64,000 nucleotides of DNA from a virus (IMGVR_UViG_3300042731_007944:1-64000), one strand, 5' to 3'. Shown: positions 1 through 43,494, counted from the stretch's first letter. Program-made: numbers and translations. Notes: a model not told the origin generated them from the sequence alone.

Positions 1-72
1 AAGTTTTATGCGTTGCACGTATGTTCAAACTGCGGAGCGCGGGTTTTGTCTTTGTGCAACGCTTTGTTAGCG
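1..72 (-). repeat. attC: attC site of cassette L7 (partial, runs off the window)
   Basis: Bases 1-70 are identical to 4106-4175. The GTTAGCG box at 66-72 is complementary to the CGCTAAC core at 4039-4045 that opens the cassette. Confidence 0.9.
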
Positions 73-157
73 CGCGCTTGTATGACACCACCAAACTTTC
101 TTTGAGGCTACCCACTCCAATATGTTTTGTCAAGCAGATAGCCTCAAATTTTAGAGG

Positions 158-931
158 TTATTTCAATTCTCCCTGCTTGGTTTCTGATATAAATTTGCGA
201 ATAAGTGGTAACGCTGCTGGATACCGCTTTTGGAAATACTTCTCGGCACGCTCTGGCAACCATACCGTATGAAAATGTTCAACGAAATCCGGCCATAATT
301 CTTTCGGGTACATTTTAGCCTGAACTTGACGACCATCAAGAAAATTATGACAATATGTCGGAAATTGTGAAGTATCAATCCCTTTTTCTTTCCGTAACCA
401 TTCACAAAACATTCGTCCTTCAGACCCATCAGGAAGCATATTCTCTGGCAAGGTGAAACCTTTCTCTTCCAAGGGAGCAATAACCCGAAATGTAATTTCA
501 TTGATCATTGAAAAGTATTGATACGGGATTTTACTTCTGTTGGCGAGATACCGTTGGAGATGATACGGAAGATTCTCTTTATGAAGAGCTAATCGCTCGC
601 ATTCAAGAAAATACTCTCGAATCCGTTCCCCGCGCTCTGTCCGTGACAACATGCAAACCTTCTTCGCAAAGTCTAACGTCAGATAAAAATCACGGCTTGG
701 TCTACCACCAGAGGTTTTCGACATAATGTCGAAAACCTCTTCATAATCTTCATGTTCTACCGCGAATTGATTTTCAACAATATTTTTTCTGTACCACCGT
801 GCCCATTGAGATTTATCAAATCCTAATTTTTCGTAAAGCTCTCTGGCGCTAACTCGGCATTTCCCTTGGTCATTTTTGTGAATAGTCACAAGCTGAGTGC
901 CCAAATTTGGCACACTTCTACTGTCTTTCAT
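158..931 (-). CDS. AntA/AntB-type antirepressor N-terminal domain fused to a BstA-like/KilA-associated C-terminal domain
   Basis: N-terminal VSARELYEKLG...DFYLTLDFAKKVCM..R.E.G..IREYF is AntA-like. C-terminal PYHLQRY..YFS..E..PDGSEG..YP..F..WLP..YF resembles BstA-family C-termini. Confidence 0.65.
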   Translation of the reverse strand: MKDSRSVPNLGTQLVTIHKNDQGKCRVSARELYEKLGFDKSQWARWYRKNIVENQFAVEHEDYEEVFDIMSKTSGGRPSRDFYLTLDFAKKVCMLSRTERGERIREYFLECERLALHKENLPYHLQRYLANRSKIPYQYFSMINEITFRVIAPLEEKGFTLPENMLPDGSEGRMFCEWLRKEKGIDTSQFPTYCHNFLDGRQVQAKMYPKELWPDFVEHFHTVWLPERAEKYFQKRYPAALPLIRKFISETKQGELK

Positions 932-954
932 GTGTAATTAGGGAACATATTTTC

Positions 955-1090
955 TTGACAGGAACGGTGGGGGGATATACTATATTCTCCGTTCAGAGGG
1001 GAAATGTAGTACTCATCTTTCGTAGTCCCAATACGATGATGACCCCACCTTCAAGCGGGTTTGGCTGTAGCGAGTCAGCCCGCTTTTCTT
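955..1090 (+). ncRNA. Candidate antisense sRNA opposite the antA leader (with promoter and terminator)
   Basis: TTGACA(955)-17 bp-TACTAT, followed by hairpin AAGCGGG..CCCGCTT plus a T-run at 1053-1090. Confidence 0.5.
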
Positions 1091-1250
1091 GTTCCTGCCA
1101 CACTATATCATGTCAAAAAACAAAAACGCCTTTAAGATTTTGCTACCGCCGGTCTTAAATGGCGTTCACGTCGTCGCCGACGCGAGAATCTTAAAGGCGT
1201 CAATTTATTCTACAATGCGCCATTTAAGACCTTAATTGGTAGCATGACGT

Positions 1251-1293
1251 ATTGTAGTTTGAATAGAAAAAACTGTCAAGAGAAAATTTTCAC
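1251..1293 (-). promoter_or_regulatory. Sigma-70 promoter with an adjacent GTGAAAATTTTCAC-type operator
   Basis: Minus strand reads GTGAAAATTTTCTC-TTGACA-17 bp-TACAAT. Confidence 0.65.
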
Positions 1294-1472
1294 CAAATCG
1301 ATCTTTCCCTGTCTGTGTGGGGAAAACACCACTGAGCGCGGGGCAAGGGACGCAGCCCTGCGCGGTGTTTCTTGTATCTGGTGACAAGAAACCTTTTTCC
1401 CGCGCCGCCGCGACGAGGAAAAACTTAATTGTTCCGCCAAACACAAGAGAGCGGGGGCAAAGCGGGCCACCA

Positions 1473-3791
1473 TCATTCCCCCTTCCCCCAGATGACTTTT
1501 ATGCGGTGTTGTATTTTGCCATCAAACATTTCCACCAATTGTTTAGCTTCTTCTATCTTCTTTTGGTATCCTTCTATTTCATCGACTATTTTCTGTTGGA
1601 TTTCAAGAGGCGGCAATGGGATTTTTAGTTTTTTTAACTGTTGTTTCGTTACTCCCTGTATAGTTGAACCTCTGCTGACCTTCTTAAATTGCTGGACAAT
1701 ATCAGAGATTACATACAGAAGATACCTCGGCAGCACTCGATCTTTTTTTAGCACCAGCCCTTGAATATCCTGGCTGATGCATACTGAAAAGTCTGTCAAA
1801 GCTACTTTTCCCAAACCGACACGTGTTACAACTAAAACACTACCTGACGGAATTTGATTTGTTGACGAATCTTGGATCGCTTCAACCGTAATATATCGTC
1901 TTGGAGTTATTTGATGCAATCCCGCAATATCAGCACTTGAAATCCAGGGAATTTCACCTTTCCAATATTGTGGAACTTTCGTAGATGGAGTTCCACCACC
2001 TAAAATTTTTTCACATAAATCGTTTAGCTCTACAAGATCCCATTGAACATTTCCATAATCCACCAATTGAATATAATTGCTTTTGCTTAGAGTGTAATCA
2101 TTTTCTTTCACATCTTGCAGGTCAATAATGGTAAATCCAACCTGTATCAGGTCTTTGTTTTCATACGAATCTATATTTCGATATGTTAAAAACTTGTCAA
2201 TATCGTTATCTCCCTCAAGCTTTTTCCTGTAATTATCAAGGGTAAAACCATCATTTTGAATGTCAAAAAACCAGTAATGACTCTGAGGTTCTGATTTTTT
2301 GACTTTTGTGCAATAAAGAATATCTGTTTTTACCCCTGAATATGGCAAAAACATCCCCTGTGGTAAAGATATAATACTTTGCAAAAATGTGTTCCTGAGA
2401 AGATATTCTCTCGTATTTCGGAGATGTTTACGAAATAAAAAGCCTTCCGGGACAACGATTGCAAGCCTCCCATTTGGTGCAGCACGATTGATTGCACGAA
2501 TACAATGTTGAACACAAATGCTGTCACCATCATGAGTCGGTAAATCATAAAGGCGGCCATACTCTGTCTCTTGTGAATATGGCATGTTCGTAACGACAAC
2601 ATCAAATTCGTTATCACTCGGAAAAGCGAGACTATTAATCTTTTTTATATTACTATGCCCATCTCCAGCCAAAATCATATTCATTTTTGTAATTCTGGCA
2701 GTTCCCGTAATTTCATTCCCGTAAATAGTCCGTTTCTGCAACCTGTCAATGTTCTCTTCTGTAGGAACGCTATTTCGTTCAATATGTCGAAAACTATCAA
2801 TCAACAATCCTCCTGTCCCACAAAAAGGATCATAAACCTTCTCGCCGAGTTGCGGATTGACGAGTTTGACCATCATTTTTACGACATGTCGTGGGGTAAA
2901 GTATTCTCCTAAATCGTTTCCCGTAACTGTTGAAGCTTTTAGGAAATACTCAAAAGCATCTCCCTTAATATCAGAGTTAATATCCGTAAGAGTTAATGGG
3001 TCTAATTTGTCGATTATTTTCTTGAGCGTAGCGTCACTTTTAATGGAAAGTTCTTGAAATATATCGGGATCGTCATAATTCCGGCTAATATTAGGGAGTA
3101 CAACGCCATTTATATAGTCTAAAAGCTCCCCTTCTCGTTTATCTTTAAAATAATCCCATCTCCATTCATATTTGATAGAACTTTGCTTACCCTGCTCTTC
3201 TCGGATATGCTCATTTTCGCTAATAAGTTTCAGAAAAAGGATATTGGCAAATTCGCTAAAACGCTCTATTCCAGCCCGCAACCCCTCAGCCCGAAGCATA
3301 TTGTTGGCTTCGTCAAATATTTTGATTAATTCATGACGAGAATCAATAACTTGCTTTGATATGGTGTTGACTTCATTATCTTCCAGAAATCTTATAGCCA
3401 AAACTTCACGTATTAATTCATCAACCTCCTCGCCATTGAGGATTAATGGCCTATGTGTTTTGGTGTGGTGAGTTTTGCAGTAGACGCCATCAGTTGCATA
3501 GACGATGGGAGTATCAAGTTTTTCGGCATATCCGATCCCCTGGTTTAACGCTTGAAGAATATCAACCCCTGGCTTTTTGGTCTCAATAATAATGAGAGGA
3601 ACACTCGTCCCTTGTTTATAGAGGACATAATCAGGACGCTTGCCTTTAAGTTTTTTACGCTCTTTCTCTGTGCGTGGTTGCTCAAAAAAGACATTCTGTT
3701 TAGGATTCTGACGATCTAAAATCCATCCTAAATTCTCAAGTTGTTTGTTCACTTGATGTCTGACATCAAATTCAAGCGGCGATGTTAACAT
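1473..3791 (-). CDS. Single-polypeptide restriction-modification enzyme (HsdR_N-type nuclease + N6-adenine MTase + one specificity domain)
   Basis: RPDYVL..IIETKK nuclease motif; GEYFTP, DPFCGTGG and NMPY MTase motifs; C-terminal GGTPST..IPLPPLEIQQKI TRD. Start moved to ATG 3791. Confidence 0.85.
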   Translation of the reverse strand: MLTSPLEFDVRHQVNKQLENLGWILDRQNPKQNVFFEQPRTEKERKKLKGKRPDYVLYKQGTSVPLIIIETKKPGVDILQALNQGIGYAEKLDTPIVYATDGVYCKTHHTKTHRPLILNGEEVDELIREVLAIRFLEDNEVNTISKQVIDSRHELIKIFDEANNMLRAEGLRAGIERFSEFANILFLKLISENEHIREEQGKQSSIKYEWRWDYFKDKREGELLDYINGVVLPNISRNYDDPDIFQELSIKSDATLKKIIDKLDPLTLTDINSDIKGDAFEYFLKASTVTGNDLGEYFTPRHVVKMMVKLVNPQLGEKVYDPFCGTGGLLIDSFRHIERNSVPTEENIDRLQKRTIYGNEITGTARITKMNMILAGDGHSNIKKINSLAFPSDNEFDVVVTNMPYSQETEYGRLYDLPTHDGDSICVQHCIRAINRAAPNGRLAIVVPEGFLFRKHLRNTREYLLRNTFLQSIISLPQGMFLPYSGVKTDILYCTKVKKSEPQSHYWFFDIQNDGFTLDNYRKKLEGDNDIDKFLTYRNIDSYENKDLIQVGFTIIDLQDVKENDYTLSKSNYIQLVDYGNVQWDLVELNDLCEKILGGGTPSTKVPQYWKGEIPWISSADIAGLHQITPRRYITVEAIQDSSTNQIPSGSVLVVTRVGLGKVALTDFSVCISQDIQGLVLKKDRVLPRYLLYVISDIVQQFKKVSRGSTIQGVTKQQLKKLKIPLPPLEIQQKIVDEIEGYQKKIEEAKQLVEMFDGKIQHRIKVIWGKGE

Positions 3792-4038
3792 AGCACCCGT
3801 AAAATAACAAAAACCCGTTTCACCTGCTGTTGATGCTTGCGGCATCTGTGCAACCCACGACTTGCGCCCGGTTGCCGTGAAACGGGATTCTAGTCAATTC
3901 TATAATAATTCATCATCAAACATCAACAGCATATTCACCGTCACCTGAATACATTCTGTTGTCAAGTGCAAAATATTGTTGTGAGAAAGTTCTCTATCTT
4001 TGCTCGTACCCACTTACTTTGTAATATAGAAAGATGCG

Positions 4039-4177
4039 CGCTAACGCCTGCGTTCACAAGCAAAACTCGCGCCCTATGCGGGAGACAGACGTTGATGCTA
4101 AGATTAAGTTTTATGCGTTGCACGTATGTTCAAACTGCGGAGCGCGGGTTTTGTCTTTGTGCAACGCTTTGTTAGGG
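4039..4177 (-). repeat. attC: attC site (139 bp) closing cassette L6
   Basis: CGCTAAC...GTTAGGG imperfect palindrome. GTTAGGGCG matches CGCCCTAAC at 6390-6398. Confidence 0.92.
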
Positions 4178-4203
4178 CGATTTTAGACAGCATCACCCAA
4201 ACC

Positions 4204-4665
4204 TTAATTTTGACAATTAAACTTCTCCGCAAGCTTCAGTAAATTATTTTCCATTGGAGGTCGCAACCATGCTTCATACATTTCTGGAATATCTTCACTA
4301 TGATGTTCAAAGAGACAATCAATTATTTGTTTTATGGTTTCAATTGATAATGTACCACCTTCTAAAACATGCCAATCATCCTCCTCATCAATGTCATTCG
4401 GAGGAATTGGGTATAAATCATAAAGCAGTACCCACGTATCTTCAGGAAAACAATCGGTGCCTTGTGGAATAAAGTATTCCCCTTGAGCATAATACGTTCC
4501 GCACCCCGGCTTTTTTGTTCTTCCTTTTTGTCGAGAGGTCGTTTTTACGAACAAATAATCTTCCTCCCCTGTCGGAGTATTCAATAGAACTAACAGCTTG
4601 TTACCAACTGTCCCATCACAAAACTTGAATTGTGGATTATGATAAATTGTTCCTCGGACATTCAT
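4204..4665 (-). CDS. Putative toxin partner of the Panacea antitoxin (possibly PemK/MazF-like fold)
   Basis: Overlaps the antitoxin stop codon by 4 nt; F.DG...K.LVLL...TTS pattern. Confidence 0.5.
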   Translation of the reverse strand: MNVRGTIYHNPQFKFCDGTVGNKLLVLLNTPTGEEDYLFVKTTSRQKGRTKKPGCGTYYAQGEYFIPQGTDCFPEDTWVLLYDLYPIPPNDIDEEDDWHVLEGGTLSIETIKQIIDCLFEHHSEDIPEMYEAWLRPPMENNLLKLAEKFNCQN

Positions 4666-5222
4666 TTTCTCGCTCCAAACACACGATACATTTCATGGCG
4701 TTCTTTTACCCGGTCATGGGCGTCTTCATACGATAGACTTTCTGGAGCATCATCCAATGCTAAATAGTAATCTATTCGTTGCTTCAACCCTTTTTCTTTC
4801 TTTGTTTTATACCAGGGAGAATTATATAAATGAGTAGATTCTACCATGTCGTCTGCTTGGGCATCTTTAAAGATAAATACCAAGTCTTCTAATAGCCGTT
4901 TTTCTCTTTTTGTAAAATATTTCCCATTAAATTTTTGACGAGGAACGATTTGCTGGAACTTATCACGTGTGATGATTTTGATTGCAGCAGCAAGATCCGG
5001 TTGCATATCTCCTGAAATCTCATCGAAAACCGGGACGGGTACTGGTCCCATTTCCCATGCATCATAGAACATTCCAGTAACGGATTTGCCGGTTTCTTTG
5101 AAGTGCCTAAAATCAAGAAAATAGAGTAACTTCATTAACTTTGTTTTACCACAAAATTCAGTATTTGCCGCAAAATAAATGATAGCATTGATAAGTTTTT
5201 CTCTATAATGAGTATTAATCAT
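4662..5222 (-). CDS. Panacea/SocA (DUF4065) antitoxin
   Basis: KTKLMKLLYFLDF..G.SVTG..Y.AW.MGPVP...SH-like/PW signature. Confidence 0.85.
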   Translation of the reverse strand: MINTHYREKLINAIIYFAANTEFCGKTKLMKLLYFLDFRHFKETGKSVTGMFYDAWEMGPVPVPVFDEISGDMQPDLAAAIKIITRDKFQQIVPRQKFNGKYFTKREKRLLEDLVFIFKDAQADDMVESTHLYNSPWYKTKKEKGLKQRIDYYLALDDAPESLSYEDAHDRVKERHEMYRVFGARK

Positions 5223-5382
5223 AATTTTTCACCACCAAGCACGACGCGAAGCGTGGTGCGTTTTTTTGCCGAAATTGGCAATCAGTTTTCTTCCCGCTGC
5301 TGCCGCGACAAGTACAATACTGATAGAGCCTCCCAAACATTGCAGAGCGGGAGCAAAGCGGGACGACTACCTTTATGATTTC

Positions 5383-6147
5383 TTATGGAGCCATAAGTTC
5401 GTCCAAGGCTTCTTTAACAGCAGCCATAAATGTCTTGCAAGCTGCTTTGTTTATAGTATAATCCCCATACTTTTTAGCATGATTAGCAGGATGGATTAAA
5501 TTGCGATATTCTATCAAAAGGTCATTATAAAATTTCACTCCCTGACTGATCCATTCACATTCATGCGCGATAAGTATCAGCTTACCGAGCCCCCATCTTG
5601 TAAGATCATTGATATCAATGGGGTTGCCATTTTTGTAAACTTCATGCGTTTTTTGTTTTGCCTCATCAAAGTTGTGTTTTAATTTATAATATAATAGCCC
5701 CTCAAGGATGCTACCAAGCAAAACAACAGTTGACAGGTTAGCTCCCACCTGGAGTGTTTTTTGTAATTCCTGCCATCGTTCTTCAAATATTCTTGTTGCT
5801 GTTGGGTCCCTGACAATATTTATAAAACTGTATGGCAATGGGGCGGCATGCCACTCCTGCTTAATAGCCTGAATAACTTGTTGAAGATGCCCTATTAAAC
5901 CTTGTGTTTGTGGATTGTCAAAAAATACAAGACGAAGATCATTGCCAGAGATCGGAACGCTTTTTATAAAAACACGAAAATTTCCACAAAGATATTCAAA
6001 ATACTGTTCTTCCTCTATTTCTACATTGTCCCTTAACCTGACACGAGGCCCAAAAGTTGCCCGTAAATACGTATCAAACCACCCCTTAAATTCATGATGA
6101 TTCGCATGAATAGCGAGGGTTTCATACTCCACAAAATCATCATGCAT
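5383..6147 (-). CDS. Protein with a C-terminal HEPN-like domain
   Basis: VLLGSILEGLL helix and an RNLIH (R-x3-H, HEPN-like) motif. Confidence 0.55.
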   Translation of the reverse strand: MHDDFVEYETLAIHANHHEFKGWFDTYLRATFGPRVRLRDNVEIEEEQYFEYLCGNFRVFIKSVPISGNDLRLVFFDNPQTQGLIGHLQQVIQAIKQEWHAAPLPYSFINIVRDPTATRIFEERWQELQKTLQVGANLSTVVLLGSILEGLLYYKLKHNFDEAKQKTHEVYKNGNPIDINDLTRWGLGKLILIAHECEWISQGVKFYNDLLIEYRNLIHPANHAKKYGDYTINKAACKTFMAAVKEALDELMAP

Positions 6148-6391
6148 GGTTTTGTCCTTTCATTTTATGATACACCCATTCAAGGAGTTCCAAAGCCGTA
6201 GTTTGACTTGGCGTTTTCCCGGTTTCTTTCATAAAGTACGCCAACACCTCATCGAGCGATTTATGCAATTGTTGATAATGCTGTTGTATATTTTGTATTT
6301 GTATCATAATTTCGCTTTAGGAGAGTTATCCAATTTTGACAAGTTATTTTTCGCTGTTCGCACCCCACTGTTTTTTATACGGAGGTGAGCG

Positions 6392-6532
6392 CCCTAACGC
6401 CTGCGCTCACGTGCGCAGCCCGCGCCCTCATGCGGGAGACACACGTTGACACCACCACTGAACGATATGCGGGGCAATGAGGCTCAAAACGGCTCCGCGC
6501 GGGCTGTGTCACCGTGCAGCGCATTGTTATAA
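6392..6532 (-). repeat. attC: attC site (141 bp) closing cassette L5
   Basis: CCCTAAC...GTTATAA. GTTATAACGC matches GCGTTATAAC at 7666-7675. Clearly related to attC 4039-4177. Confidence 0.92.
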
Positions 6533-6592
6533 CGCCTTTCATACTCCCAACTTTTCTTTTCTTACGTCATGGCTACTTGGTAAGTGATATCG

Positions 6593-6778
6593 TCAAAACA
6601 CCAAGGCCAAGACTTCGACATCGCAGGTTCTCTCCACGGAAATCTCTTGCGGATCGACAGCTTGAAGAATATTCACCCGTTCAATCAGCACCGTCGTCTC
6701 ATCCTCAAAGGCTTGAATACTTCGGAGAATATCAGCCTCTAATTGTTGCTTTCTTTTCCGAATTTCCGTTAATTCCAT
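6593..6778 (-). CDS. Small hypothetical protein (cassette L5)
   Basis: 61-aa ORF directly downstream of 6791-7282. Confidence 0.6.
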   Translation of the reverse strand: MELTEIRKRKQQLEADILRSIQAFEDETTVLIERVNILQAVDPQEISVERTCDVEVLALVF

Positions 6779-6790
6779 ATCGTATCACCA

Positions 6791-7282
6791 TTACGTTAAC
6801 CGCGTCAAAACCTCTAAGATCACCGCCCAGGTTGCCGGATGCTCAATACCTTTGAGAATTAATGATGTCATCAACTCCGTTGATACATTACCTGAAAAAT
6901 GTCGTAACTTTTTCAGAATGGTCTCCTTCTCCTCCTGGGGGATCGATGACTGAAGAATTTTTTCTTCGACAAGTTTTTTGACACTCTCAACGTCAAATTT
7001 GACTGTAACGGTATTGAGTATCGCTGTCAACCCTCCATCATCTTCCAAAAAATCCAATCCGCTTGCAGAGATTTTGGCCAGGATCATTGAACGTGGGGCT
7101 GACATCACTCGTCGCTCTTTGCCTTCAATCAATCCATGTTCTTTGAGATAGAACGCATTAAACTGTAATTCTTGTTCATCATCACAATCAAGCGCTAACT
7201 TGTGTAATTGCACCTCTTCTGGGTAATGGTCGCGTAATGCCACTAAGATTTTCCGCTGTATTTCACGATTCACACTCATCAT
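6791..7282 (-). CDS. Winged-helix-like hypothetical protein (DUF2513/YjcQ-like)
   Basis: IL..L...YP...YLKEHGLI...I.A.G.DFL..DGG pattern; AGGAGG RBS. Confidence 0.6.
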   Translation of the reverse strand: MMSVNREIQRKILVALRDHYPEEVQLHKLALDCDDEQELQFNAFYLKEHGLIEGKERRVMSAPRSMILAKISASGLDFLEDDGGLTAILNTVTVKFDVESVKKLVEEKILQSSIPQEEKETILKKLRHFSGNVSTELMTSLILKGIEHPATWAVILEVLTRLT

Positions 7283-7668
7283 ATCCTCCTGTCTTCAACC
7301 CCTGTCATATCCAGAAAAATGAGGAACAGCAGGCGACAGGAGTAACCTGCTGATTCGGGTCGCGATCCCTATCCTCATTATGGCGAGCAAGCGCGACGCG
7401 ATGCGTGGCGCGATGCGTGGCGCGATGCGTATCTTTGTTACTGGCAACTACCTTAATCCCACACTGGACGGTTGCGCCCTGACCGAAGGCAACAAGCCTC
7501 GACAGAGCACCAAACTGTAGATGACGAGGAGTATGTCTGATGAACCTCCGCGCAACTGTGCTGTGTGGGCCACCATACTTCTGATTCAATCGTAACCGAA
7601 CAAATCTGGAAAGCGCAAGACGTTTTTACAGCTTTTTACTGTCTTATCCAAGCGTATAGTCACATGCG

Positions 7669-7802
7669 TTATAACGCCCGCGCTCAACTGCAAAACCCGC
7701 AAGCGAGAAATGAAGCTGGCGCAAGCTGTAAACGTGTGCGGCAGTACAATGTGTAAATAACTACTGCACGCGGGTTTTGTCATTTGCAGCGCTTTGTTCT
7801 GC
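7669..7802 (-). repeat. attC: attC site (134 bp) closing cassette L4
   Basis: TTATAAC...GTTCTGC with internal AAAACCCGC/GCGGGTTTT arms. GTTCTGCGGC matches GCCGCAGAAC at 8354-8363. Confidence 0.9.
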
Positions 7803-8102
7803 GGCCAAAACCTCCATGCTTATTTTTTCAAAAGCTTCTTCTATAGCACGGGCATCGGCACGCTTAAAATCAATCCCGCAGGAATGACACTGCATTTCCC
7901 CGTCATCGCCATACAACGCAGAAAATGAACACCCATGCCGTAGCCACAAAAGACGTCGCAAAATTTTATTATCTTCTGCTAAATTGGTATTTTCTCCGCG
8001 CAAGATGGTAAGTGGGTTAATAGTTCTCCCACTCCCAACTACAACAACTTTGGGGCGCGTCTCCGTGAGATGTTTAATTTTGCCAATCGTATATTCCGAC
8101 AT
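7761..8102 (-). CDS. Phage-like hypothetical protein with putative Zn-binding motif
   Basis: LWLRHGC..LYGDDGEMQC..C.IDFKR; the ORF reads into the attC. Confidence 0.7.
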   Translation of the reverse strand: MSEYTIGKIKHLTETRPKVVVVGSGRTINPLTILRGENTNLAEDNKILRRLLWLRHGCSFSALYGDDGEMQCHSCGIDFKRADARAIEEAFEKISMEVLAAEQSAANDKTRVQ

Positions 8103-8103
8103 T

Positions 8104-8340
8104 TTATCTCCTTGGCTGGGGTTCTATGCGATTTTTTAACATATACTGAGTAAAATCATCATAGGCCCTATCGAGCTGATCTGCAACAATATTATCAATA
8201 ATGCTCTGCAATGTGGGGGTTGACTGAACCCATTGCTTGTACACTAATCGAGATGTTGAGTCTTTGGGTAATTTTTCCTTTTCACACCATTCTCCGTAAT
8301 CAATAATTTCGATGACTCGTCTTTCGATTGTCTTTTGCAT
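8104..8340 (-). CDS. Hypothetical protein (cassette L4)
   Basis: GGGAG RBS right after the cassette core; coupled to the next ORF. Confidence 0.7.
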   Translation of the reverse strand: MQKTIERRVIEIIDYGEWCEKEKLPKDSTSRLVYKQWVQSTPTLQSIIDNIVADQLDRAYDDFTQYMLKNRIEPQPRR

Positions 8341-8356
8341 TATTAACTCCCAAGCC

Positions 8357-8460
8357 GCAGAACGCTGAATTTCAGTTGCGGAAACCGCGCCAGGAAAAAC
8401 CTGACGCGACTACCACAACCAGACAGCGCGGTTTCCGTCAACTGCAAATTTTTGTTATGC
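8357..8460 (-). repeat. attC: attC site (104 bp) closing cassette L3
   Basis: GCAGAAC...GTTATGC with CGGAAACCGCGC/GCGCGGTTTCCG arms. Confidence 0.92.
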
Positions 8461-8775
8461 CGCACCACTACCAATGACTGTTCTTGCCAGCATCGCATCA
8501 ACATGATCGGCAGCAGATGCTAAATTCTGATAAGCTGTTTTCCATGTTTGATTCAAATCAGGTGCTTCAGAGAGTTCAAGAGAACCGTCTCTGATTTGTT
8601 GATAGTATTCCCTTGACTCTTCTGTTGTCATAGGTGACACGTTTGGCATTTCTTCAAAGGCCAATTTAAAATTCTCTTCAGTCGTTAATACTACTGTATG
8701 TTTTTTTAACTCAAGGGGGATGCCCTCAATTTTTACAACTGTTCCTGCCGGAATTGTTTTTTCTACTTTTCCCAT
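8455..8775 (-). CDS. Hypothetical protein (cassette L3)
   Basis: AAGGAG RBS; the TAA stop lies within the attC R'' box. Confidence 0.75.
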   Translation of the reverse strand: MGKVEKTIPAGTVVKIEGIPLELKKHTVVLTTEENFKLAFEEMPNVSPMTTEESREYYQQIRDGSLELSEAPDLNQTWKTAYQNLASAADHVDAMLARTVIGSGAA

Positions 8776-8797
8776 AATGCTCCTTCGCCGCAATGCG

Positions 8798-8898
8798 GCA
8801 TAACGTTGCATTCAGACGCCCCAACCCGCCTGAACGATGTTTGTAACTACGACAACTCTTGACGGCGGGTTGGGGTCGTTTGCAATGCTTTGTTCTGT
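8798..8898 (-). repeat. attC: attC site (101 bp) closing cassette L2
   Basis: GCATAAC...GTTCTGT with CCCCAACCCGCC/GGCGGGTTGGGG arms. Confidence 0.92.
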
Positions 8899-8903
8899 GG
8901 CGC

Positions 8904-9188
8904 TTAACAGACAGTTGCCGAATCAAGCATTTCCAGTGCTTCTTCATCGGCGATTGCCGTTTTTACTAATTCAACAAGATCCCCGCCTTTATGGACTTCG
9001 CACATAATTTCGTGTGCTTTCCCTGTGCCGAGCGATTGCTTGAACTCATTTTCAAGCCACAGAAGGCATAATGCAAGTTCTTTTTCCAAAAACGTCCACC
9101 GACGCAACCCCTTCCCTGCTCCTTGACCAATTTCTTGATGTGTTGTTTTGACTATTTTCGCAAGATTGATTTCCATGATTTTCTCCAC
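8904..9188 (-). CDS. Hypothetical protein (cassette L2)
   Basis: Single ORF filling the space between two attC sites. Confidence 0.7.
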   Translation of the reverse strand: MEKIMEINLAKIVKTTHQEIGQGAGKGLRRWTFLEKELALCLLWLENEFKQSLGTGKAHEIMCEVHKGGDLVELVKTAIADEEALEMLDSATVC

Positions 9189-9210
9189 GAATGTAGCATA
9201 CTTTCAAGCC

Positions 9211-9340
9211 ACAGAACGCCTGCCATCAAGCGCTGCGCCCTTGCGGGCACGAACGCTGAAACTGGAAAGACATTTGCGCGGTAGTAAAAAGCTGAAAACT
9301 GCCGACAACGGGCGCAGTCGCTTGCATGGCTTTGTTATGC
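9211..9340 (-). repeat. attC: attC site (130 bp) closing cassette L1
   Basis: ACAGAAC...GTTATGC with CTGCGCCC/GGGCGCAG arms. GTTATGC complements the attI core at 9768-9774. Confidence 0.92.
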
Positions 9341-9753
9341 AACGACACGCCCAATATCTTATTTTGATACTTAATAGCCTTCCTCAAATAGGTGAGTTTG
9401 CCAGTTGCATAGTATTCTAACCGATTGTTGAAATACTTCCAATATAAATCTTTGTCAACAGATTCAAAATTGACATTACTGATTGTCGAAATCTGCAAAA
9501 CATCATCAACTATATCGGCGTTAAACCATTCTCGTTGACGTGCTAAATATTGATTATACCTAAATAAAAAGAAGTTTTCAAGTTCATATCTGTTATCTGT
9601 TTTTATAACATGCAACAATTCAGGAGCAATCCCGATGCATTGACATTTCAACAATGACATTCTGCGTTTTACTTCAACAGTTTCCCCAACCTTTACCGTT
9701 TTAGGAGAAACTTTCGCAAAGTAAACATACCCTGGATAATACTGTGTCTCCAT
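9226..9753 (-). CDS. T5orf172/GIY-YIG-like domain protein (cassette L1)
   Basis: GYVYF...VKVG.T..V.RR...LE...REWF motif. Confidence 0.75.
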   Translation of the reverse strand: METQYYPGYVYFAKVSPKTVKVGETVEVKRRMSLLKCQCIGIAPELLHVIKTDNRYELENFFLFRYNQYLARQREWFNADIVDDVLQISTISNVNFESVDKDLYWKYFNNRLEYYATGKLTYLRKAIKYQNKILGVSLHNKAMQATAPVVGSFQLFTTAQMSFQFQRSCPQGRSA

Positions 9754-9767
9754 AAATTCTCCGAGTT

Positions 9768-9923
9768 GCATAACAATATTATTCTTTAAACTCTCAACAT
9801 AGATAATACTGACAGATGAACAGGTTTTTTGTCAAGGTATATTTACCAAAAAAGACCCATTTTTTATAATAATTTTTGCGAGAAAAACTTGACAAATTTC
9901 GTCAGCCTTTTTACGCTTCCTTT
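9768..9923. promoter_or_regulatory. attI: attI-L with divergent Pc and PintI promoters
   Basis: G/TTATGC crossover on the minus strand at 9774. Minus-strand TTGACA near 9835 (Pc); plus-strand TTGACA(9889)-17 bp-TACGCT (PintI). Confidence 0.85.
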
Positions 9924-10883
9924 ATGGCACAAAAAAGTAAGCTGTTAGCAGACTTTCAGGTTTGGATGACCAAAAAAGGCTTATCCTACCACACGGAACA
10001 AAGTTATGTCCAGTGGGCCAAACGATTCATTCTCTACTATAACAAAACCCATCCGCTTGAGATGGCAGAGCCGGAAGTGCAAGCCTACCTCTCGTACTTA
10101 GCCGTTGAACGCGAAGTGCGCCCTTCGACACAGAATCAGGCGTTTCACGCCCTGATCAACTTCTATCAGTTTCTCGGCAAGCCACTCTTTAACGTCAACG
10201 CCACTCGCGCCAAAAAGAAAACACGCATCCCGGTCGTGCTCTCACGAAACGATGTTCTTCTCCTGCTTGACCATATCACAAAGCCGCCGTACCCATGTAT
10301 GGCTGAACTGCTCTATGGCTCTGGGTTGCGCATCTCAGAATGCGTCCGATTGCGCGTGAAAGACCTTCTGTTAGATCGTCTGCAAGTCATTGTTCGCAGT
10401 GGCAAGGGCGACAAGGATCGGTTGTCCCTTCTCACGGATAATGCCGTTCCACTCTTGCAAGCCCAGCTTGTCACGGCGCGGCGTGTCTACGACCAGGATC
10501 GCAGGTCTCATCTCGCGGGCGTCTACCTTCCTCCGGCCTTATCTCGAAAATACCCATCTGCCTCAACCTCATGGGAATGGTTCTGGGTGTTCCCGTCTAT
10601 CAAGCGTTCAGACGATCCCCGTGATGACGTTGAACGGCGTCATCATTGGAGCGATCACGCCTTGCGGAAATATATCAAACAGGCCGCGAAACAGGCCGGG
10701 TTTGATACAACGATCACGCCGCACGTCCTGCGTCATTGTTTTGCCACGCATCTGCTAGAGGCGGGATTGGGGGATGGCCGAACGCTTGAACTCGTCCGGC
10801 AGTATATGGGACATGATTCAATTGAAACGACAAAAATCTATCTGCACTGTATGCAACGAGGGCGGAATCCGTTAAGTCGCTAG
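9924..10883 (+). CDS. intI: Integron integrase (tyrosine recombinase)
   Basis: GLRISE, GKGDKDR, HVLRH, GH..TTKIY catalytic set plus the IntI-specific insertion GVYLPPALSRKYP...WFWVFPS...DPR..RRHH; divergent from the attC array. Confidence 0.97.
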   Translation: MAQKSKLLADFQVWMTKKGLSYHTEQSYVQWAKRFILYYNKTHPLEMAEPEVQAYLSYLAVEREVRPSTQNQAFHALINFYQFLGKPLFNVNATRAKKKTRIPVVLSRNDVLLLLDHITKPPYPCMAELLYGSGLRISECVRLRVKDLLLDRLQVIVRSGKGDKDRLSLLTDNAVPLLQAQLVTARRVYDQDRRSHLAGVYLPPALSRKYPSASTSWEWFWVFPSIKRSDDPRDDVERRHHWSDHALRKYIKQAAKQAGFDTTITPHVLRHCFATHLLEAGLGDGRTLELVRQYMGHDSIETTKIYLHCMQRGRNPLSR

Positions 10884-11723
10884 AACAACAGTTCTGTCTG
10901 AAGTTCTTTCCCGGCTGTTTGCCGCAACATAACGCCGTGTTGGGCTTGCGGCATCCGTTGCCGTTCTTCCCCGAAATTCAACTTATAGCCTTCCTTTTTA
11001 ATGTCATAGACGTCGGCGATCTTTTCATAACAGCCCGTAATCACGCCATAGCGTCGTCGAAAGGTTAAGTTGTTTTTTGACGACACACTCATCTGGACCG
11101 GCAACTCAACCGCTAATCGCTTATGCTTATGCCCGAGCCAGATCAGATCGGATGACACCCAGGAGCAATAACGCTTCAGATCGATTATGCCATCCGTCAC
11201 TTCCGCATTCCCGCCCTGCCCGTGATTGTAGAATACGTCAAATTTCCGCCCATGTCCACCATTGCGTGTGTAGACAAACCGAATAAATCCGGTGTATCCG
11301 CCGTGACAAATCGGTTGCAGTGATGTGTTACGCCGCTCATTCAGCAGCGTGATCAACATATCTACGAGATCAAAATCTTGATATTTGAGTGTGCTCGTTT
11401 CGTGATTGCCTAAGCCAATGACATCAATGAGATCGACATACGGAACGAGCATCTCGAACGCGAAGTAGACGGATTGATTGAGTTTGGCCTGCCGTTGATC
11501 CTTGTCCTGGCTCCGAGACCACCGTTTTTTTGTCCTGCGAGAGGAGGAGGCTGGTCACATCGCCGTTGATAAAAATGCGAGCATTGCATTCCTTTGCGCG
11601 GTCAAAATCCTGAAGAAACACCTTTTTGTCAAAACCGGGTGCGTCCAAATGCAGATCAGAGGCAAAGAGGTGGTAATATTCTTTTTGCGAGGTGACATCG
11701 CGTCTGAACGTGATTATCTGCAT
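10880..11723 (-). pseudogene. Calcineurin-like metallophosphoesterase split by a 1-nt frameshift
   Basis: SDLH and NGD are in the 5' ORF; GNHE, HG and GHKH are in the 3' ORF. Removing one A from the A7 tract (11525-11531) fuses them. Confidence 0.8.
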
Positions 11724-12094
11724 TCAGACAGGTATCCCTCCACGATTTTCGCCACATCCGGATCGAGCACCGCCCGGTTCCCTGGCGGTGACGTCAACGC
11801 CCGGTATGCCTTCAGCGCATCCACGATGGCAACCAGCGTGTCTAATGTGGGCGCAACGGCACTCAAGTCTTTCCCGAACATCGCTTCCGCCGCTGCAATG
11901 CCTTTCTCATTATCCTGACGATCCTTGCTGGCTAGCAGGGCCAATTCAGCTAGCCGGTCAAGATCGATGTCGTCTTGAAGCACGGTTCCGTCCAGGTCGA
12001 CAAGGCCATACGTACCATCGCTTTGCGGCTGCAAGGCGCAGGCGGCCAGAAGAAGCAGGGCAAGAAAACATGTTATTATGAGACTCTTTTGCAT
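11714..12094 (-). CDS. Phage lipoprotein
   Basis: Signal peptide with an LAAC lipobox. Confidence 0.7.
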   Translation of the reverse strand: MQKSLIITCFLALLLLAACALQPQSDGTYGLVDLDGTVLQDDIDLDRLAELALLASKDRQDNEKGIAAAEAMFGKDLSAVAPTLDTLVAIVDALKAYRALTSPPGNRAVLDPDVAKIVEGYLSECR

Positions 12095-12282
12095 TGTTCA
12101 AAGCGCACCCGAATCCGCGTCACCAGGTCGTCTTCCCGATGACGTGGACAGGGCCACGACAGGGATTCAACGGTTTGCAAAGCCAGCACAATCTGCTCGA
12201 TCCGAACCTGATTGTGTTCCGCGCCGGGTTCGGTGACAAACAAGACTTGTTGCGCCAATAGATGCTGATCATGTGGATTCAT
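12076..12282 (-). CDS. Hypothetical protein
   Basis: Overlaps both neighbours in the same operon. Confidence 0.5.
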   Translation of the reverse strand: MNPHDQHLLAQQVLFVTEPGAEHNQVRIEQIVLALQTVESLSWPCPRHREDDLVTRIRVRFEQCKRVS

Positions 12283-12970
12283 GCTTTTCGTTGGAAATCC
12301 CCTTGTACACCAACCCATCCAAATCACCATTCAGTTGACTGAGTGTGGCTTCAGCGGACACCAGCACGAGTAAGGTATTGTTTTTCAAACTATACAAAAT
12401 CGCCGCGAGGCGTTGTTTATTCGAGGGAAAGGCCGCCGTCTCCAGATATTCGGAAATCTGCTGCAAGAATTGCTCGCGGTGGTGGCGATACACGGCGTTG
12501 AATTTCCGGACAATCATCTTCGCCGGGCCGGATTGCGCAGAGAAATAGATGGACAAGGCTTCTACCGCCCGATCTTCGCAATAGGGAAAGAGGGCAATCA
12601 ACCACTCCATCGTCGCGGTTTTAAATTTTGCCTTCGGCAGGGCATGATAGTCTTTCGACAGGCCCTCAACGAGATAATCGTGCATCGCGTGAAAATATTC
12701 ACTCAGAAAATCCGACCAGAGCGCCTGTTTGAAGGTGCTTGGAAAGCAGACATTATGCGCGGTGCTCGTATAAAAGACTTCTATCGTGGCGAGGATCGAA
12801 TGTGACTGAATGGCGTAATCAAACGGGAAATCCTGATGCAGGGGTTCTGCCTTCGGGCGCTCATTCAGCTTCTTCTCGAAATACCGATAGGCGAGAAAAA
12901 TTGCCAGACCGGAAATCAACAAGGGAGCGCCAAACTGATTGAGATACTGGAAAAGTTGTTCAACTGTCAT
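12269..12970 (-). CDS. Membrane-anchored phage protein (holin-like N-terminus)
   Basis: One N-terminal TM helix; first gene after the promoter at 12978-13022. Confidence 0.55.
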   Translation of the reverse strand: MTVEQLFQYLNQFGAPLLISGLAIFLAYRYFEKKLNERPKAEPLHQDFPFDYAIQSHSILATIEVFYTSTAHNVCFPSTFKQALWSDFLSEYFHAMHDYLVEGLSKDYHALPKAKFKTATMEWLIALFPYCEDRAVEALSIYFSAQSGPAKMIVRKFNAVYRHHREQFLQQISEYLETAAFPSNKQRLAAILYSLKNNTLLVLVSAEATLSQLNGDLDGLVYKGISNEKHEST

Positions 12971-12977
12971 GGCACGA

Positions 12978-13022
12978 TATCATAGCAGCATGGCGGGAAG
13001 AAAGTCAAGTGAAAATTTTCTC
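12978..13022 (-). promoter_or_regulatory. Sigma-70 promoter with the shared operator
   Basis: GAGAAAATTTTCAC-TTGACT-18 bp-TATGAT (with extended TG). Confidence 0.6.
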
Positions 13023-13134
13023 AGATAGATCGCCCTGACCTATCCTGGCTATCCCACGAGAGTTACAGCACAGATCAGGGCGTGACACCGTTCAGCAGAC
13101 AACCTAGGAGGGGAGACTGAACGGCGTTTCGTTT

Positions 13135-13590
13135 TTACATTGCGTCTAAAGCGTCCTCTACGAGGCCATCAAACACTGTCGCAACATTACGAGCGTTCGG
13201 ATCTTCCTCGTCATCAAATAAGATTCGGAACACCATCGCAGCGGCCACTTTTGCGGCAGCCTGGGCTTTGTTAAAAACCTCTTTCCCGGACTCGAACGCT
13301 TCTTTCCCGAGTTCAAAAATCTCCCGTAATTCTTCAGTGGTTTTCTCATCAGCCATCGCATTCACGACGGATTCAGCCGTTTCTGCGATTTTCTGAAAAT
13401 CAACCTCTCTCGATTTCATTTCTTCTGTCACTGAGCAACACCTCCTTTCCTTTGAAGTAAAAAATGTCATGGAGTCCAGCGCCATTTTCAAAACTTCCTG
13501 CTTGTCTTCATTCGACAAGACCCTGTACCACTGTCGAATCTCCTGGGCCGGGTGTCCGGCAAGCTGTTCAATCTGTTCGCCGAGCGTCAA
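13135..13590 (-). CDS. Hypothetical protein
   Basis: ORF coupled to the upstream gene. Confidence 0.6.
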   Translation of the reverse strand: MTLGEQIEQLAGHPAQEIRQWYRVLSNEDKQEVLKMALDSMTFFTSKERRCCSVTEEMKSREVDFQKIAETAESVVNAMADEKTTEELREIFELGKEAFESGKEVFNKAQAAAKVAAAMVFRILFDDEEDPNARNVATVFDGLVEDALDAM

Positions 13591-17796: not shown

Positions 17797-19215
17797 TCAA
17801 TAGCTCCTCGTCTGCCAGTCGTCCGGCACGTCCGGCGCGGGCTGGTGATGGCGCTCCAGGTTCTCGAAGCGGGTGTATTCTTTCAAGTAGGACAAATAGG
17901 CCGTTCCAATTTCACCGTTTCGTTGTTTACGGAAAAGAATTTCTGCAAGACCCTTGTCTGGGGTCTCTGGATAATACACCTCATCGCGATAGATACACAT
18001 CACGACATCCGCATCCTGTTCAATCGCGCCTGACTCTCGTAAATCCGACAAAATAGGGCGCTTATCGGTTCGAGTTTCACAGGCCCGGCTTAATTGCGAC
18101 AGGGCCAGTACAGGCACGTTCAACTCTTTCGCCAGGGCCTTGAGCGACCGGGAAATTTCCGTGACTTCCTGCTGCTTATTTTCCTGTCTCCTGCGTGTCG
18201 TCATGAGTTGTAGATAGTCCACAATGACCAACCCAAGTCCGTGTTTCATCTTGAGTTGCTTCGCCTTCGCTCGCATCTCAAGAATATTCAGGGCTGGGGT
18301 GTCGTCAATGTGAATCGCGGCCTTTGCCAGCACTTCAGCAGCATAAGCTAACCGCTCCCAATCTCCCTCTTGTACCTGTCCGGCGATCAGCTTTCGATAG
18401 TTGACTTTCGCCTCAGAACATAGCAGACGCATCCCCACTTGTTCTTTCGACATTTCCAGGCTAAAGATCGCCGTTGGGATCTGGTGTTTCGCTCCGGTAT
18501 ATCGTCCGACACATAAGGCTAACGCCGTTTTTCCCATGCTCGGACGCGCGGCCAGGATAATCAAATCTGAAGGTTGTAACCCAGTGGTCAGATAATCGAT
18601 CTCCGTGTATCCGGTAGGGACGCCCGTCACGACCTGTTTCTTTTCAGCCAACTCCTCCAGCAGTTCGAAACTCTGCTTGACCAACACGCCTGAACTCACA
18701 AAGCCCTGTTTCACATGGCCCTGCGCCACATTAAAAATCATATTTTGTGCATCTTCCAAGATGACAGACGCTGGTTCCTGGTCGTCATGACAGCGACAGG
18801 CGATCTGGATGCTAGCGTTCATTAACCGGCGTGAAATCGCTTTTTCGTGAACAATCCCCGCATGAAAGGTGATGTTTGCCGCTGAAGGAACCTGATCAAC
18901 GAGTTCAGCAAGATAGGCCGGACCGCCGATCTCTTCAAGTTGTTTGCGGCGTTCCAATTCATCACGTAAGACAAGCAGATCGACCGCTCCCTGCTGTTCG
19001 AGACACGTCAACATCGCCTCGAAAATCTTCCGATGGTTCAGGCGGTAAAAGTCTTCTGGATCGAAAAGTTCTAACGCGGCGTACAGGGATGCGTTTTGCA
19101 CCAGCACCGCCCCTAAGACGGCTCGCTCAGCGTCCAAATTGAACGGTGGCGGTATTTCTGCCTTGCGATACATGGTCTGTATCGTCGCATGTTCATAGGT
19201 TTTCGGGTTACTCAT
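17797..19215 (-). CDS. dnaB: Replicative DNA helicase
   Basis: AARPSMGKT, FSLEM, VDYLQL, SQLSR, DLRESGAIEQDAD, KQRNG motifs. Confidence 0.97.
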   Translation of the reverse strand: MSNPKTYEHATIQTMYRKAEIPPPFNLDAERAVLGAVLVQNASLYAALELFDPEDFYRLNHRKIFEAMLTCLEQQGAVDLLVLRDELERRKQLEEIGGPAYLAELVDQVPSAANITFHAGIVHEKAISRRLMNASIQIACRCHDDQEPASVILEDAQNMIFNVAQGHVKQGFVSSGVLVKQSFELLEELAEKKQVVTGVPTGYTEIDYLTTGLQPSDLIILAARPSMGKTALALCVGRYTGAKHQIPTAIFSLEMSKEQVGMRLLCSEAKVNYRKLIAGQVQEGDWERLAYAAEVLAKAAIHIDDTPALNILEMRAKAKQLKMKHGLGLVIVDYLQLMTTRRRQENKQQEVTEISRSLKALAKELNVPVLALSQLSRACETRTDKRPILSDLRESGAIEQDADVVMCIYRDEVYYPETPDKGLAEILFRKQRNGEIGTAYLSYLKEYTRFENLERHHQPAPDVPDDWQTRSY

Positions 19216-20249
19216 TGTGCCCCTCCAATACCGGCCACATATCCGGTCATGCGGTGTTGTTGCTCAGGTGGTAACTTCGTCTCTTGTACCGCATGCGGAA
19301 CCCGGTTGTACTGGCGTTCTTGTGTGTACCGCTGCGGTGTCTGGGCTTTCACGTAATTCTGATATTTCCACGGCCATCGCCTTCGAGAACCACGGATAGT
19401 GAGATAATGGCTCTTATAGGCTTTTGCTGACATGCCAAACTGGTATTCATCATGCTCTTCCAGGAACTCATCAAGGTCTGTAATCCAAAACTGCAATTCG
19501 CGCTTATCCTGTTTGAAAAGCGTCAACAGCTTCCCTTTTTCATCGTCTGTCAGGTAGACATGCTGATATTCCCCATACGGTTTCTCGTCAGGGTCAGGTT
19601 CGGTTTTGACGCGTCGTCGTGTCTTTTTCCCTTTTCGAGAAGGGGGGGATGAAGCCGTGTCATCCTGCGACGAATGTTCTTTCTTTTTTTCTTCACTCTC
19701 AGTATTATTCTTTAATTCAGATCTACGTATCCTTATATCAGTATTACGTTGTGTCGGATTTTCCACCTTCTGGTTTTTCAGTAATCTGGATGACTCGTCC
19801 GGTTTTAGGGCGTTTTCACGAGATGACCAGATTCCTGACTTCCCGTCCACTGGTGTATCCATATAACCAGATTCCTGACTTCCCGTCCACTGGTTGTGTG
19901 GTGGATATGTTTGTGTCAATGCCTGTAGAAACGCCCCGTAGAGCGGGTGATCTTTTGGCACTTCCACCACGGCTGTTTTCCACTCTTGCACCCGTCCGCC
20001 GTCATCTCTCACGGCAAATTTCCGAAAATAGCCATACTGTTTGAGTTCACGCAAGGCGGCCCTGGTCGCATCGCGCCCTTCTGTGGCATGGGCCATTAAG
20101 TCTTGTTCAGAACATTCCCACCCGTCGCCATGTCCTACGAGATAGGTGAGGATGCCTTTGGCCCTCCAGGACAACCGGGTATCGTCGAGAATCGGATATT
20201 TATGAATCGTAATTGAGTCTGTCAGTACTTTCTGCACGCGATAAATCAT
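19212..20249 (-). CDS. Phage replication initiator (HTH, lambda-O-like organisation)
   Basis: DTRLSWRAKGIL...L.ELKQYGY; directly upstream of dnaB; contains iterons. Confidence 0.8.
   Translation of the reverse strand: MIYRVQKVLTDSITIHKYPILDDTRLSWRAKGILTYLVGHGDGWECSEQDLMAHATEGRDATRAALRELKQYGYFRKFAVRDDGGRVQEWKTAVVEVPKDHPLYGAFLQALTQTYPPHNQWTGSQESGYMDTPVDGKSGIWSSRENALKPDESSRLLKNQKVENPTQRNTDIRIRRSELKNNTESEEKKKEHSSQDDTASSPPSRKGKKTRRRVKTEPDPDEKPYGEYQHVYLTDDEKGKLLTLFKQDKRELQFWITDLDEFLEEHDEYQFGMSAKAYKSHYLTIRGSRRRWPWKYQNYVKAQTPQRYTQERQYNRVPHAVQETKLPPEQQHRMTGYVAGIGGAQ
19826..19894. repeat. Iteron-like 29-bp direct repeat x2 (putative ori)
   Basis: ACCAGATTCCTGACTTCCCGTCCACTGGT at 19826 and 19866, next to an AT-rich tract at 19680-19750. 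Confidence 0.7.
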
Positions 20250-43321: not shown

Positions 43322-43349
43322 TAGAGAAACGGGGCGTCGAGCGAGTGCA

Positions 43350-43425: not shown

Positions 43426-43494
43426 GTGTTCAGTAGGTACTCTATACGATAGTGCGTGGGGAGAAAAATGTCAAATCGGTCTAGCAAAAAAAAT

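Follow-up and report, generated by a model that had tools for sequence, protein, structure and literature searches.

An apparently intact integron with two inverted attI platforms, probably carried by a large uncultivated temperate phage

The stretch of DNA considered here (the window) comprises bases 1-64,000 of the 104,987-bp IMG/VR record IMGVR_UViG_3300042731_007944, a metagenome assembly. The integron found in it is canonical and apparently intact, and its carrier is probably the genome of an uncultivated temperate phage of large size (at least 105 kb). The element consists of a full-length integron integrase gene (intI), an adjoining attachment site (attI-L) that heads a minus-strand array of cassettes at the contig start (array L), and an inverted copy of this platform (attI-R) that heads a plus-strand array (array R) among the late phage genes. 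The integrase gene and array L are tied to the phage by three features, that is, a 4-nt overlap between open reading frames (ORFs), a 174-bp duplication and a shared operator. Positions above 64,000 refer to the whole record.

The integrase gene occupies 9924-10883 on the plus strand and encodes 319 amino acids (aa) from an ATG at 9924, which is the most likely start within a reading frame that is open from a TTG at 9876. The protein passes the integron-integrase model TIGR02249 with 329.9 bits against a cut-off of 265, contains the Pfam domains Phage_int_SAM_4 and Phage_integrase, and aligns over its full length with the structure of VchIntIA from Vibrio cholerae (2A3V, E 8e-70). Across residues 190-245 the two proteins align without gaps, and the alignment covers both the IntI-specific insert and the conserved catalytic motifs R, K, HxxR, H and Y (RHRY-type). 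With a GC content of 0.52 and a GC content at third codon positions (GC3) of 0.575, the gene resembles the phage backbone. A second contig is recorded as encoding the same IntI.

On the upstream side, intI is adjoined by the divergent attI-L (9771-9923, minus strand), with its crossover at GTTA 9774-9771; array L opens with this GTT, at a distance of 150 nt from the ATG of intI. The attI/intI leader contains two divergent promoter candidates with consensus-level matches, TTGTCA-18-TATTAT on the minus strand (9895-9866) and TTTACC-17-TATAAT on the plus strand (9842-9870). On the downstream side, the intI stop codon (10881-10883) overlaps the stop codon of a convergent minus-strand ORF (10880-11452; weak match to phrog_7339, E 1e-6) by 4 nt within CTAG. 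This is the last ORF of a long early/replication gene string, which runs on to the genes for DnaB (17797-19215) and a replication initiator (19212-20249). An earlier note on this DNA had described intI as overlapping the 3' end of a phage operon without transposon remnants in between. Both observations hold: among the ORFs scanned in 1-13,590 there is no transposase match, and the nearest transposase gene found lies at 50768-52018.

Array L comprises seven minus-strand cassettes. The G of the opening GTT core is found at 9774, 9217, 8804, 8363, 7675, 6398 and 4045, respectively, and the last C of the R'' boxes, which end in AAC, at 9334, 8892, 8454, 7796, 6526, 4171 and 66. In cassettes 1 to 7 the opening core is complementary to the R'' box of the same cassette over 10, 10, 11, 10, 10, 9 and 10 contiguous nt, while in an all-against-all matrix of the seven cassettes the non-self pairs reach 3-7 nt only. 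As only GTT and AAC are invariant, this pairing goes far beyond chance, and it is the signature of cassettes that, judging from their sequence, were formerly circular. The delimitation of seven cassettes by the match between core and own R'' box, as originally proposed, is thus borne out. The R'' ends and the placement of the cassettes were also given correctly, whereas the numbers given for the opening cores mark the ends of these cores and not their starts.

Each of the six complete attC sites of array L folds into an imperfect hairpin whose 3' arm, on the bottom (plus) strand, has two single-base bulges. A covariance model trained on 15 of the genome's attC sites found, in 119 kb, no attC outside the arrays other than two truncated halves, one at either end of the contig. 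For 32 distinct sites, taken both from this phage and from a relative introduced below (G004), 95.7% of the cells in paired columns do pair, against 58% for shuffled and at most 40% for slid partners, and 14 of the 17 base pairs show compensatory changes. The sites are heterogeneous, with a mean column identity of 52%, and near-identical on cassettes 6, 7 and 8.

The second platform, attI-R (62941-63114, minus strand), is an inverted 174-bp copy of attI, the intI promoter and the first seven intI codons. It shares 170 of 174 nt with 9771-9944 (four mismatches), and the identity ends exactly at the GTTA crossover. It adjoins, directly upstream, the tape-measure gene (60311-62806) and heads array R, which has seven attC sites, the first at 63415-63549 (plus strand, 81.6 bits), and runs past the window to about 68.5 kb. 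Together the two arrays have at least 16 attC-bounded cassettes. Segments are common to both: the leader of cassette 5 (7403-7676) and that of cassette R7 (66,827-67,102) are 79% identical over about 280 bp and start from the same opening core, and different genes follow them. Such common segments hint at shuffling of cassettes. Furthermore, the near-identical attC sites on neighbouring cassettes and the leader common to both arrays suggest that such events may have been recent.

Several observations on RNA elements in the cassettes can be added. The leader common to cassettes 5 and R7 looks like a promoter followed by a structured RNA; even at permissive thresholds, the window's cassette leaders matched none of the families in Rfam. 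The int-alpA RNA motif (RF02996, gathering threshold 35.8) was found twice on the minus strand of the genome, at 102,091-102,161 and 103,857-103,924 (44 and 35.5 bits), within far-end cassettes and each time between a TTGACA-type promoter and an ORF. Window positions 7320-7375 resemble this motif by eye, window positions 7315-7381 match 69,367-69,433 of the genome at 82%, and Rfam matched neither of the two segments. About 20 nt past the crossover of attI-R, as cargo of the first cassette, ARAGORN predicts a 95-nt tRNA-Gly(acc)-like gene (63132-63226, plus strand), which the Rfam tRNA model does not report at its gathering threshold.

The genome around the two platforms is that of a phage, as the earlier note had claimed. 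PHROG matches identify a DnaB-type helicase, a replication initiator and an exonuclease at 17.8-25.2 kb, tape-measure to fibre genes at 53.8-62.8 kb, and the large terminase subunit (TerL), portal, protease and major capsid genes at 82.6-93.3 kb. A tube-type tail protein is encoded at 76.0-77.2 kb (PF18906), with adaptor and neck proteins at 74.4-78.4 kb, and a phage-type tyrosine integrase at 98,146-99,204, near the far contig edge. Array R is therefore flanked by phage hallmark genes on both sides (53.8-62.8 kb and 74-93 kb), and from the gene order this array and attI-R are placed within the limits of the phage genome, between the neck/tube genes and the tape-measure gene. The other ORFs scanned encode methyltransferases and PAPS-reductase-like, DnaA_N-domain and radical-SAM proteins.

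A regulatory element is also common to integron and backbone. The palindrome GTGAAAATTTTCAC occurs five times with at most one mismatch, against 0.48 expected (about 10-fold enriched). The copies at 1280 (in cassette 7), 13,009 and 62,913 directly adjoin a minus-strand TTGAC -35 box. The first of these copies belongs to a promoter TTGACA-17-TACAAT with operator (1251-1293, minus strand) ahead of a BstA-like gene, and the last is an operator palindrome upstream of the tape-measure gene (62913-62926, minus strand).

A search with homologues of the tube protein led to a distantly related genome, IMGVR_UViG_3300035670_000271 (G004), of 54,492 bp with a 128-bp terminal repeat and a CheckV completeness of 100%. 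The tube proteins are 47%, the capsid proteins 30% and the baseplate proteins 30-33% identical, and portal and neck are also common to both. With the covariance model of the phage, G004 has 15 attC sites (29-66 bits) in an array region at 26.5-36.9 kb. Its cassettes follow the same rule of self-complementarity between core and R'' box, and an attI-like end is present. The cargo includes three N6/N4 methyltransferases, one of which is fused to an Mrr-type nuclease. The two phages differ in that G004 has a single array, at another genome position, and only a remnant of intI, a 243-aa ORF with the N-terminal SAM-like domain alone, while the phage of the window has two arrays and a full-length IntI. 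In G004 the tape-measure gene directly follows the neck gene with nothing between them; the block at 63.1-74.0 kb is therefore inserted into the late region.

How far the contig itself can be trusted depends on its ends. The contig start (1-77, minus strand), which cuts the cassette 7 attC and retains its R'' half, matches positions 1-75 only of the attC covariance model with 47.3 bits, and the far end (104,917-104,987) matches positions 79-141, so that both would combine into one attC with a 3-nt gap. At first sight these complementary halves could pass for near-proof of a circular genome, but this was rejected because each contig end runs exactly 70 nt, at perfect identity, into the attC of cassette 6, a three-copy attC repeat. 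Circular closure is plausible but unproven: the halves have the same orientation, the cassettes flanking the break have the same attC variant, and no host gene is recognised among the ORFs scanned. Further cassettes between the contig ends could exist and would fit a completeness of 89%.

Some results weigh against a phage residence of the integron or limit the comparison with relatives. The record is classed as linear, with a CheckV completeness of 89%, in a metagenome assembly. Ends made of a 70-nt repeat are what a break in a de Bruijn/k-mer graph would leave whether or not they are neighbours, so that the adjacency of the contig ends and the size of array L are unproven. No relative of IntI above 50% identity was found among the 5.8 billion proteins searched, and there is accordingly no close relative in which insertion sites could be compared. 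TerL has no relatives in the viral contigs or species genomes searched, and among cultured phages it retrieves only Mu-like terminases at about 23% identity. Likewise, the tube protein has no match among cultured phages, and its search matches were only G004 (47%), a provirus (28%) and a 2.4-kb fragment, none of them a close relative. Finally, no canonical LexA box was recognised by eye in the attI/intI leader, a negative that carries little weight. A closer relative of the tube protein is present on an 85-kb contig.

Three other explanations were considered. First, intI and array L could be parts of an integron of a bacterial chromosome, with a prophage beside it or inserted into it, so that the contig would be made up of host DNA and prophage. 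Such an arrangement has a published precedent in a prophage embedded in a chromosomal integron (PMC9892861; the Vibrio anguillarum phage), and here the array lies at a contig edge with both ends in repeated attC, the phage-type tyrosine integrase (98,146-99,204) lies near the other edge, and the GC content of the cassettes is unlike that of the backbone. We nevertheless consider it unlikely. The 4-nt overlap of intI with a backbone ORF, the presence of a second attI and array in the late operon, with the neck gene on one side and the tape-measure gene on the other, and the promoter-operator that cassette 7 has in common with backbone promoters all speak against it. The attC sites are heterogeneous, unlike those of a sedentary chromosomal array, and in G004 the array lies within terminal repeats. 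Direct repeats of at least 14 nt, with one copy on the intI side and the other on the integrase side, would be attL/attR candidates, but none was found within the contig, and therefore no internal prophage boundary is seen; among the ORFs scanned no host housekeeping gene was recognised.

That the integron, though real and borne by the phage, is a dead passenger, a piece acquired from a host on a single occasion that has ceased to recombine, with fossil morons for arrays, seems quite unlikely as well. The IntI of the phage retains its full length, the IntI-specific insert and every catalytic motif, all complete attC sites keep their pairing, bulges and compensatory changes, the complementarity between R'' and core is perfect over 9-11 nt in seven of seven cassettes, and the near-identical neighbouring attC sites and the leader common to both arrays suggest recent events. 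In favour of the dead-passenger reading are the remnant of intI in G004, which retains the N-terminal part only, the cryptic state of the Shewanella prophage M16-3 (see below), and the last cassette of the far-end array, which is without a full attC. In addition, an exact search of viral and metagenome contigs for this attI, in which other first cassettes were sought, gave no match, and thus no other contig with the same attI and different cassettes was found. A chimeric assembly, in which repeated attC or attI sequences joined the phage to an unrelated bacterial integron of the same sample, appears highly improbable. In its favour, the assembly is short-read-style with repeats of 70-174 bp, and the GC content changes stepwise from cassettes to backbone; however, several independent false joins would be needed, and the junction between intI and the backbone ORF 10880-11452 is unique sequence. 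Moreover, the two attI copies differ at four positions and have four different flanks, intI has the composition of the backbone, the operator is common to cassette 7 and the backbone, and G004 independently shows the same association. An integron that is part of the phage genome thus remains the preferred reading.

The cassettes of array L are all on the minus strand. Cassette 1 (9218-9774; attC 9204-9345, 120.9 bits) encodes a T5orf172/MUG113 (GIY-YIG-like) protein (9226-9771) that matches PF13455 and PF10544 of Pfam as well as phrog_5032 and phrog_18411. The next three have no family match: cassette 2 (8805-9217; attC 8791-8903) contains a 94-aa ORF (8904-9188), cassette 3 (8364-8804; attC 8350-8465) an ORF at 8455-8811 with a likely start at 8775, and cassette 4 (7676-8363; attC 7662-7807) the overlapping small ORFs 8104-8340 and 7761-8102. 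Cassette 5 (6399-7675; attC 6385-6537) has a non-coding leader of about 380 nt, a DUF2513/phrog_3983 protein (6791-7282; E 9e-41 to phrog_3983) and a small ORF (6593-6778). The description of the proximal cassettes as carriers of small phage-like ORFs consequently fits cassettes 1 and 5 and does not fit cassettes 2 to 4. Cassette genes have a GC content of 0.37-0.45 and a GC3 of 0.28-0.44, the GC content being 10-15 points below that of the backbone.

Cassette 6 (4046-6398, 2.35 kb; attC 4032-4182, 117.3 bits) encodes a 55-aa ORF, a 254-aa protein (5383-6147) and a probable toxin-antitoxin module. The antitoxin (4662-5222) is a Panacea protein (PF13274, 65.3 bits against a cut-off of 25.7), and its gene has a 4-nt overlap with the next ORF (4204-4665), whose product has a predicted fold resembling PemK/MazF (TM score 0.57-0.72, which is to be taken as a lead only). 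By profile and predicted fold, the Panacea protein and its MazF-fold partner would constitute a coupled toxin-antitoxin pair. The 254-aa protein has no Pfam, NCBIfam, PADLOC or PHROG match and a resemblance to DUF4145/AbiJ_NTD5 clusters only at the level of language-model features. As a HEPN protein it was rejected: no HEPN profile matches, and its candidate motif RNLIH has three residues between R and H, not the spacing of Rx4-6H.

Cassette 7 (60-4045, about 4 kb) contains two genes. The first encodes a 790-aa fusion (1473-3845) with HSDR_N at residues 40-107, N6_Mtase at 291-593 and Methylase_S at 600-768, which PADLOC assigns to MTase_I and Specificity_I and which in the PDB matches the M and S subunits of type I systems; from this domain content it is predicted to be a single-chain (type IIG/IIB-like) restriction-modification enzyme. 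The second encodes the BstA-like protein (158-931), whose N-terminus is an AntA domain and whose matches (PADLOC BstA, 5e-17; phrog_6287, 5e-34) cover residues 119-237 only. The next cassette, just past the contig break, encodes SieB (PF14163, E 8e-28). Among the cassette proteins scanned no family match points to antibiotic resistance. The sequence thus supports a cargo of defence and addiction genes rather than resistance genes, in agreement with the earlier note; its restriction-modification, toxin-antitoxin and BstA-like genes are supported by domain or predicted-fold matches, while its HEPN-like gene has the language-model resemblance only.

An imperfect hairpin of about 70 nt, in which CCCGC..GC..CCCGC is paired with GCGGC..GC..GCGGG, recurs in these multi-gene cassettes and always in such cassettes. 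Its copies, all on the minus strand, are at 5288-5376, at 1383-1472 and at 13086-13176 of the far-end locus L005, and each follows a stop codon, the genes concerned being those of the 254-aa protein, the restriction-modification enzyme and SieB. Rfam returns no match, AAC/GTT cores are lacking, and compensatory changes are seen at three pairs, with no more than three copies to compare.

On the basis of these features, it is possible to speculate about how the element functions. IntI would act on attC in the form of a folded bottom strand (in array L the plus strand), recombining it at GTT|A with one or the other attI and so leading to the entry of a cassette, and recombination between two attC sites would lead to its loss. 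The two inverted attI platforms may thus offer two entry points to one IntI. Promoterless single-ORF cassettes close to attI are probably read from the candidate promoter in the attI/intI leader, and the large distal cassettes are predicted to be driven by promoters of their own. The cargo may help the prophage to hold its host and to exclude rival phages by means of the restriction-modification enzyme, the BstA-like protein, the Panacea/MazF-like pair and SieB. In all this we infer that IntI is active, that the cargo has a role in defence and that the whole element is packaged.

Phage-borne integrons have been published before. Among 10,705 phage genomes, Qi et al. 2023 (PMC9892861) found three complete integrons and 17 attC clusters without integrase, and the complete ones are pieces of a host array or lie in a cryptic prophage (PMC9892861). 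The closest parallel is the dual-attI Shewanella prophage vB_SspM_M16-3 (MZ568829; PMC9892861), with a complete integron at the genome edge near the phage att site and integrase. As in the phage described here, intI is on the plus strand, the cassettes are on the minus strand, and a second array without intI is headed by an inverted attI among tail genes; in the M16-3 sequence we confirmed a 151-bp inverted attI duplicate and cassettes common to its two arrays. However, M16-3 is a 40-kb P2-like cryptic prophage, unrelated to the phage of at least 105 kb, and the two IntIs are 36% identical. The IntI of M16-3 is 95% identical to the chromosomal IntI of its host genus, whereas that of the phage is at most 50% identical to anything, and the attI duplicate found here extends into intI and is 98% identical, against 87% in M16-3. 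The Vibrio anguillarum phage Va_90-11-286_p16 (MK672802; PMC9892861) is likewise temperate and has intI and an array with a toxin-antitoxin cassette, and the ends of that phage lie in attC repeats of the host integron. Its integron is a subset of the host chromosomal array with homogeneous Vibrio-type attC sites, in contrast to the heterogeneous attC sites and the late-operon array found here, and the IntIs are 39% identical.

With canonical integrons (class 1; Vibrio cholerae) the element shares the IntI fold and insert, the divergent intI/attI arrangement, the usual orientation of the cassettes, and attC sites with R'' and R' cores, bulged bases and a variable loop. It differs in its phage replicon, its two attI platforms, the absence of resistance genes and of a Tn402/Tn21 context, and in its distal cassettes, which have sizes of 2.4 and 4 kb, comprise several genes and have promoters of their own. 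Anti-phage defence genes have also been reported in integron cassettes (bioRxiv 10.1101/2024.07.02.601719; PMC12614218). These integrons resemble the present one in having defence-type rather than resistance genes, but they are borne on plasmids or chromosomes and protect the bacterium, while here the carrier is a phage, and BstA and SieB are of the classic prophage-exclusion type.

From the published phage integrons, this unusually large one differs in four respects: an intact and deeply divergent IntI, at least 16 attC-bounded cassettes in two arrays, a physical and shared-regulatory tie to the backbone, and a relative with terminal repeats and an array of the same type. These distinctions make it a good system for testing whether phages employ integrons to swap genes for superinfection exclusion and addiction, and whether cassettes pass between phage and host arrays. 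A broader view can be put forward only tentatively, namely that integrons are a regular, self-encoded accessory system of some phage lineages and not rare captures, with one IntI serving two platforms that bracket 53 kb and would permit capture at two sites, a possible IntI-driven or homologous inversion of half the genome between them, and exclusion and addiction cargo wired to the operator of the phage.

Integron integrases are not confined to this contig among viral sequences. An alignment search of IMG/VR with IntI gave 479 matching stretches, of which the best 80 (loci L065-L144) were considered; these are 39-48% identical to IntI over nearly its full length. Of the contigs sampled, which are 36-68 kb in size, ten out of ten encode an IntI above the TIGR02249 cut-off (390-468 bits), and some have capsid or portal genes; one of them, G011, combines terminal repeats with a gene for an HK97-type capsid. 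Hairpins beside the IntI gene of G011 were not counted as attC sites, as their GTT...AAC ends are in reverse order. The attC model matches 17 of these best 80 loci at E <0.01, several of them on the intI strand and downstream of intI. No survey of metagenomic viral contigs for integrons was found in the literature searched, and a systematic screen of this kind seems worthwhile.

The attC type of the phage is spread over many phyla and is most frequent in a Ca. Vecturithrix genome. This 7.3-Mb genome (Ca. Vecturithrix sp., G001) has at least 14 attC sites that match the model, nine of which score 50-78 bits. It also encodes four IntIs, which are 47, 41, 38 and 41% identical to that of the phage, and two of their genes are adjacent. 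Cassettes may have come from this genome or passed into it. Ca. Vecturithrix was not adopted as the host, since TerL has no match there and only a 32% identical transposase is present.

Some features of the backbone deserve mention in their own right. A 921-aa ORF without PHROG match (79,754-82,519) adjoins the capsid gene, is AT-richer, and contains a 332-bp direct repeat with 77% identity between its copies (80,934-81,265 and 81,756-82,087). The transposase gene at 50768-52018 (minus strand; phrog_506, E 3e-94) lies in an AT-richer accessory region between FtsK-like and tail genes and is the sole one among the contig ORFs scanned. Finally, a c-di-GMP-I-GGC riboswitch aptamer (RF03167, 60.2 bits against a gathering threshold of 59) is predicted at 43350-43426 on the minus strand. 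It is located at the 5' end of an 846-aa ORF (40859-43399), the C-terminal part of which matches phrog_7998 and ATPase families, and the product appears to be regulator-like.

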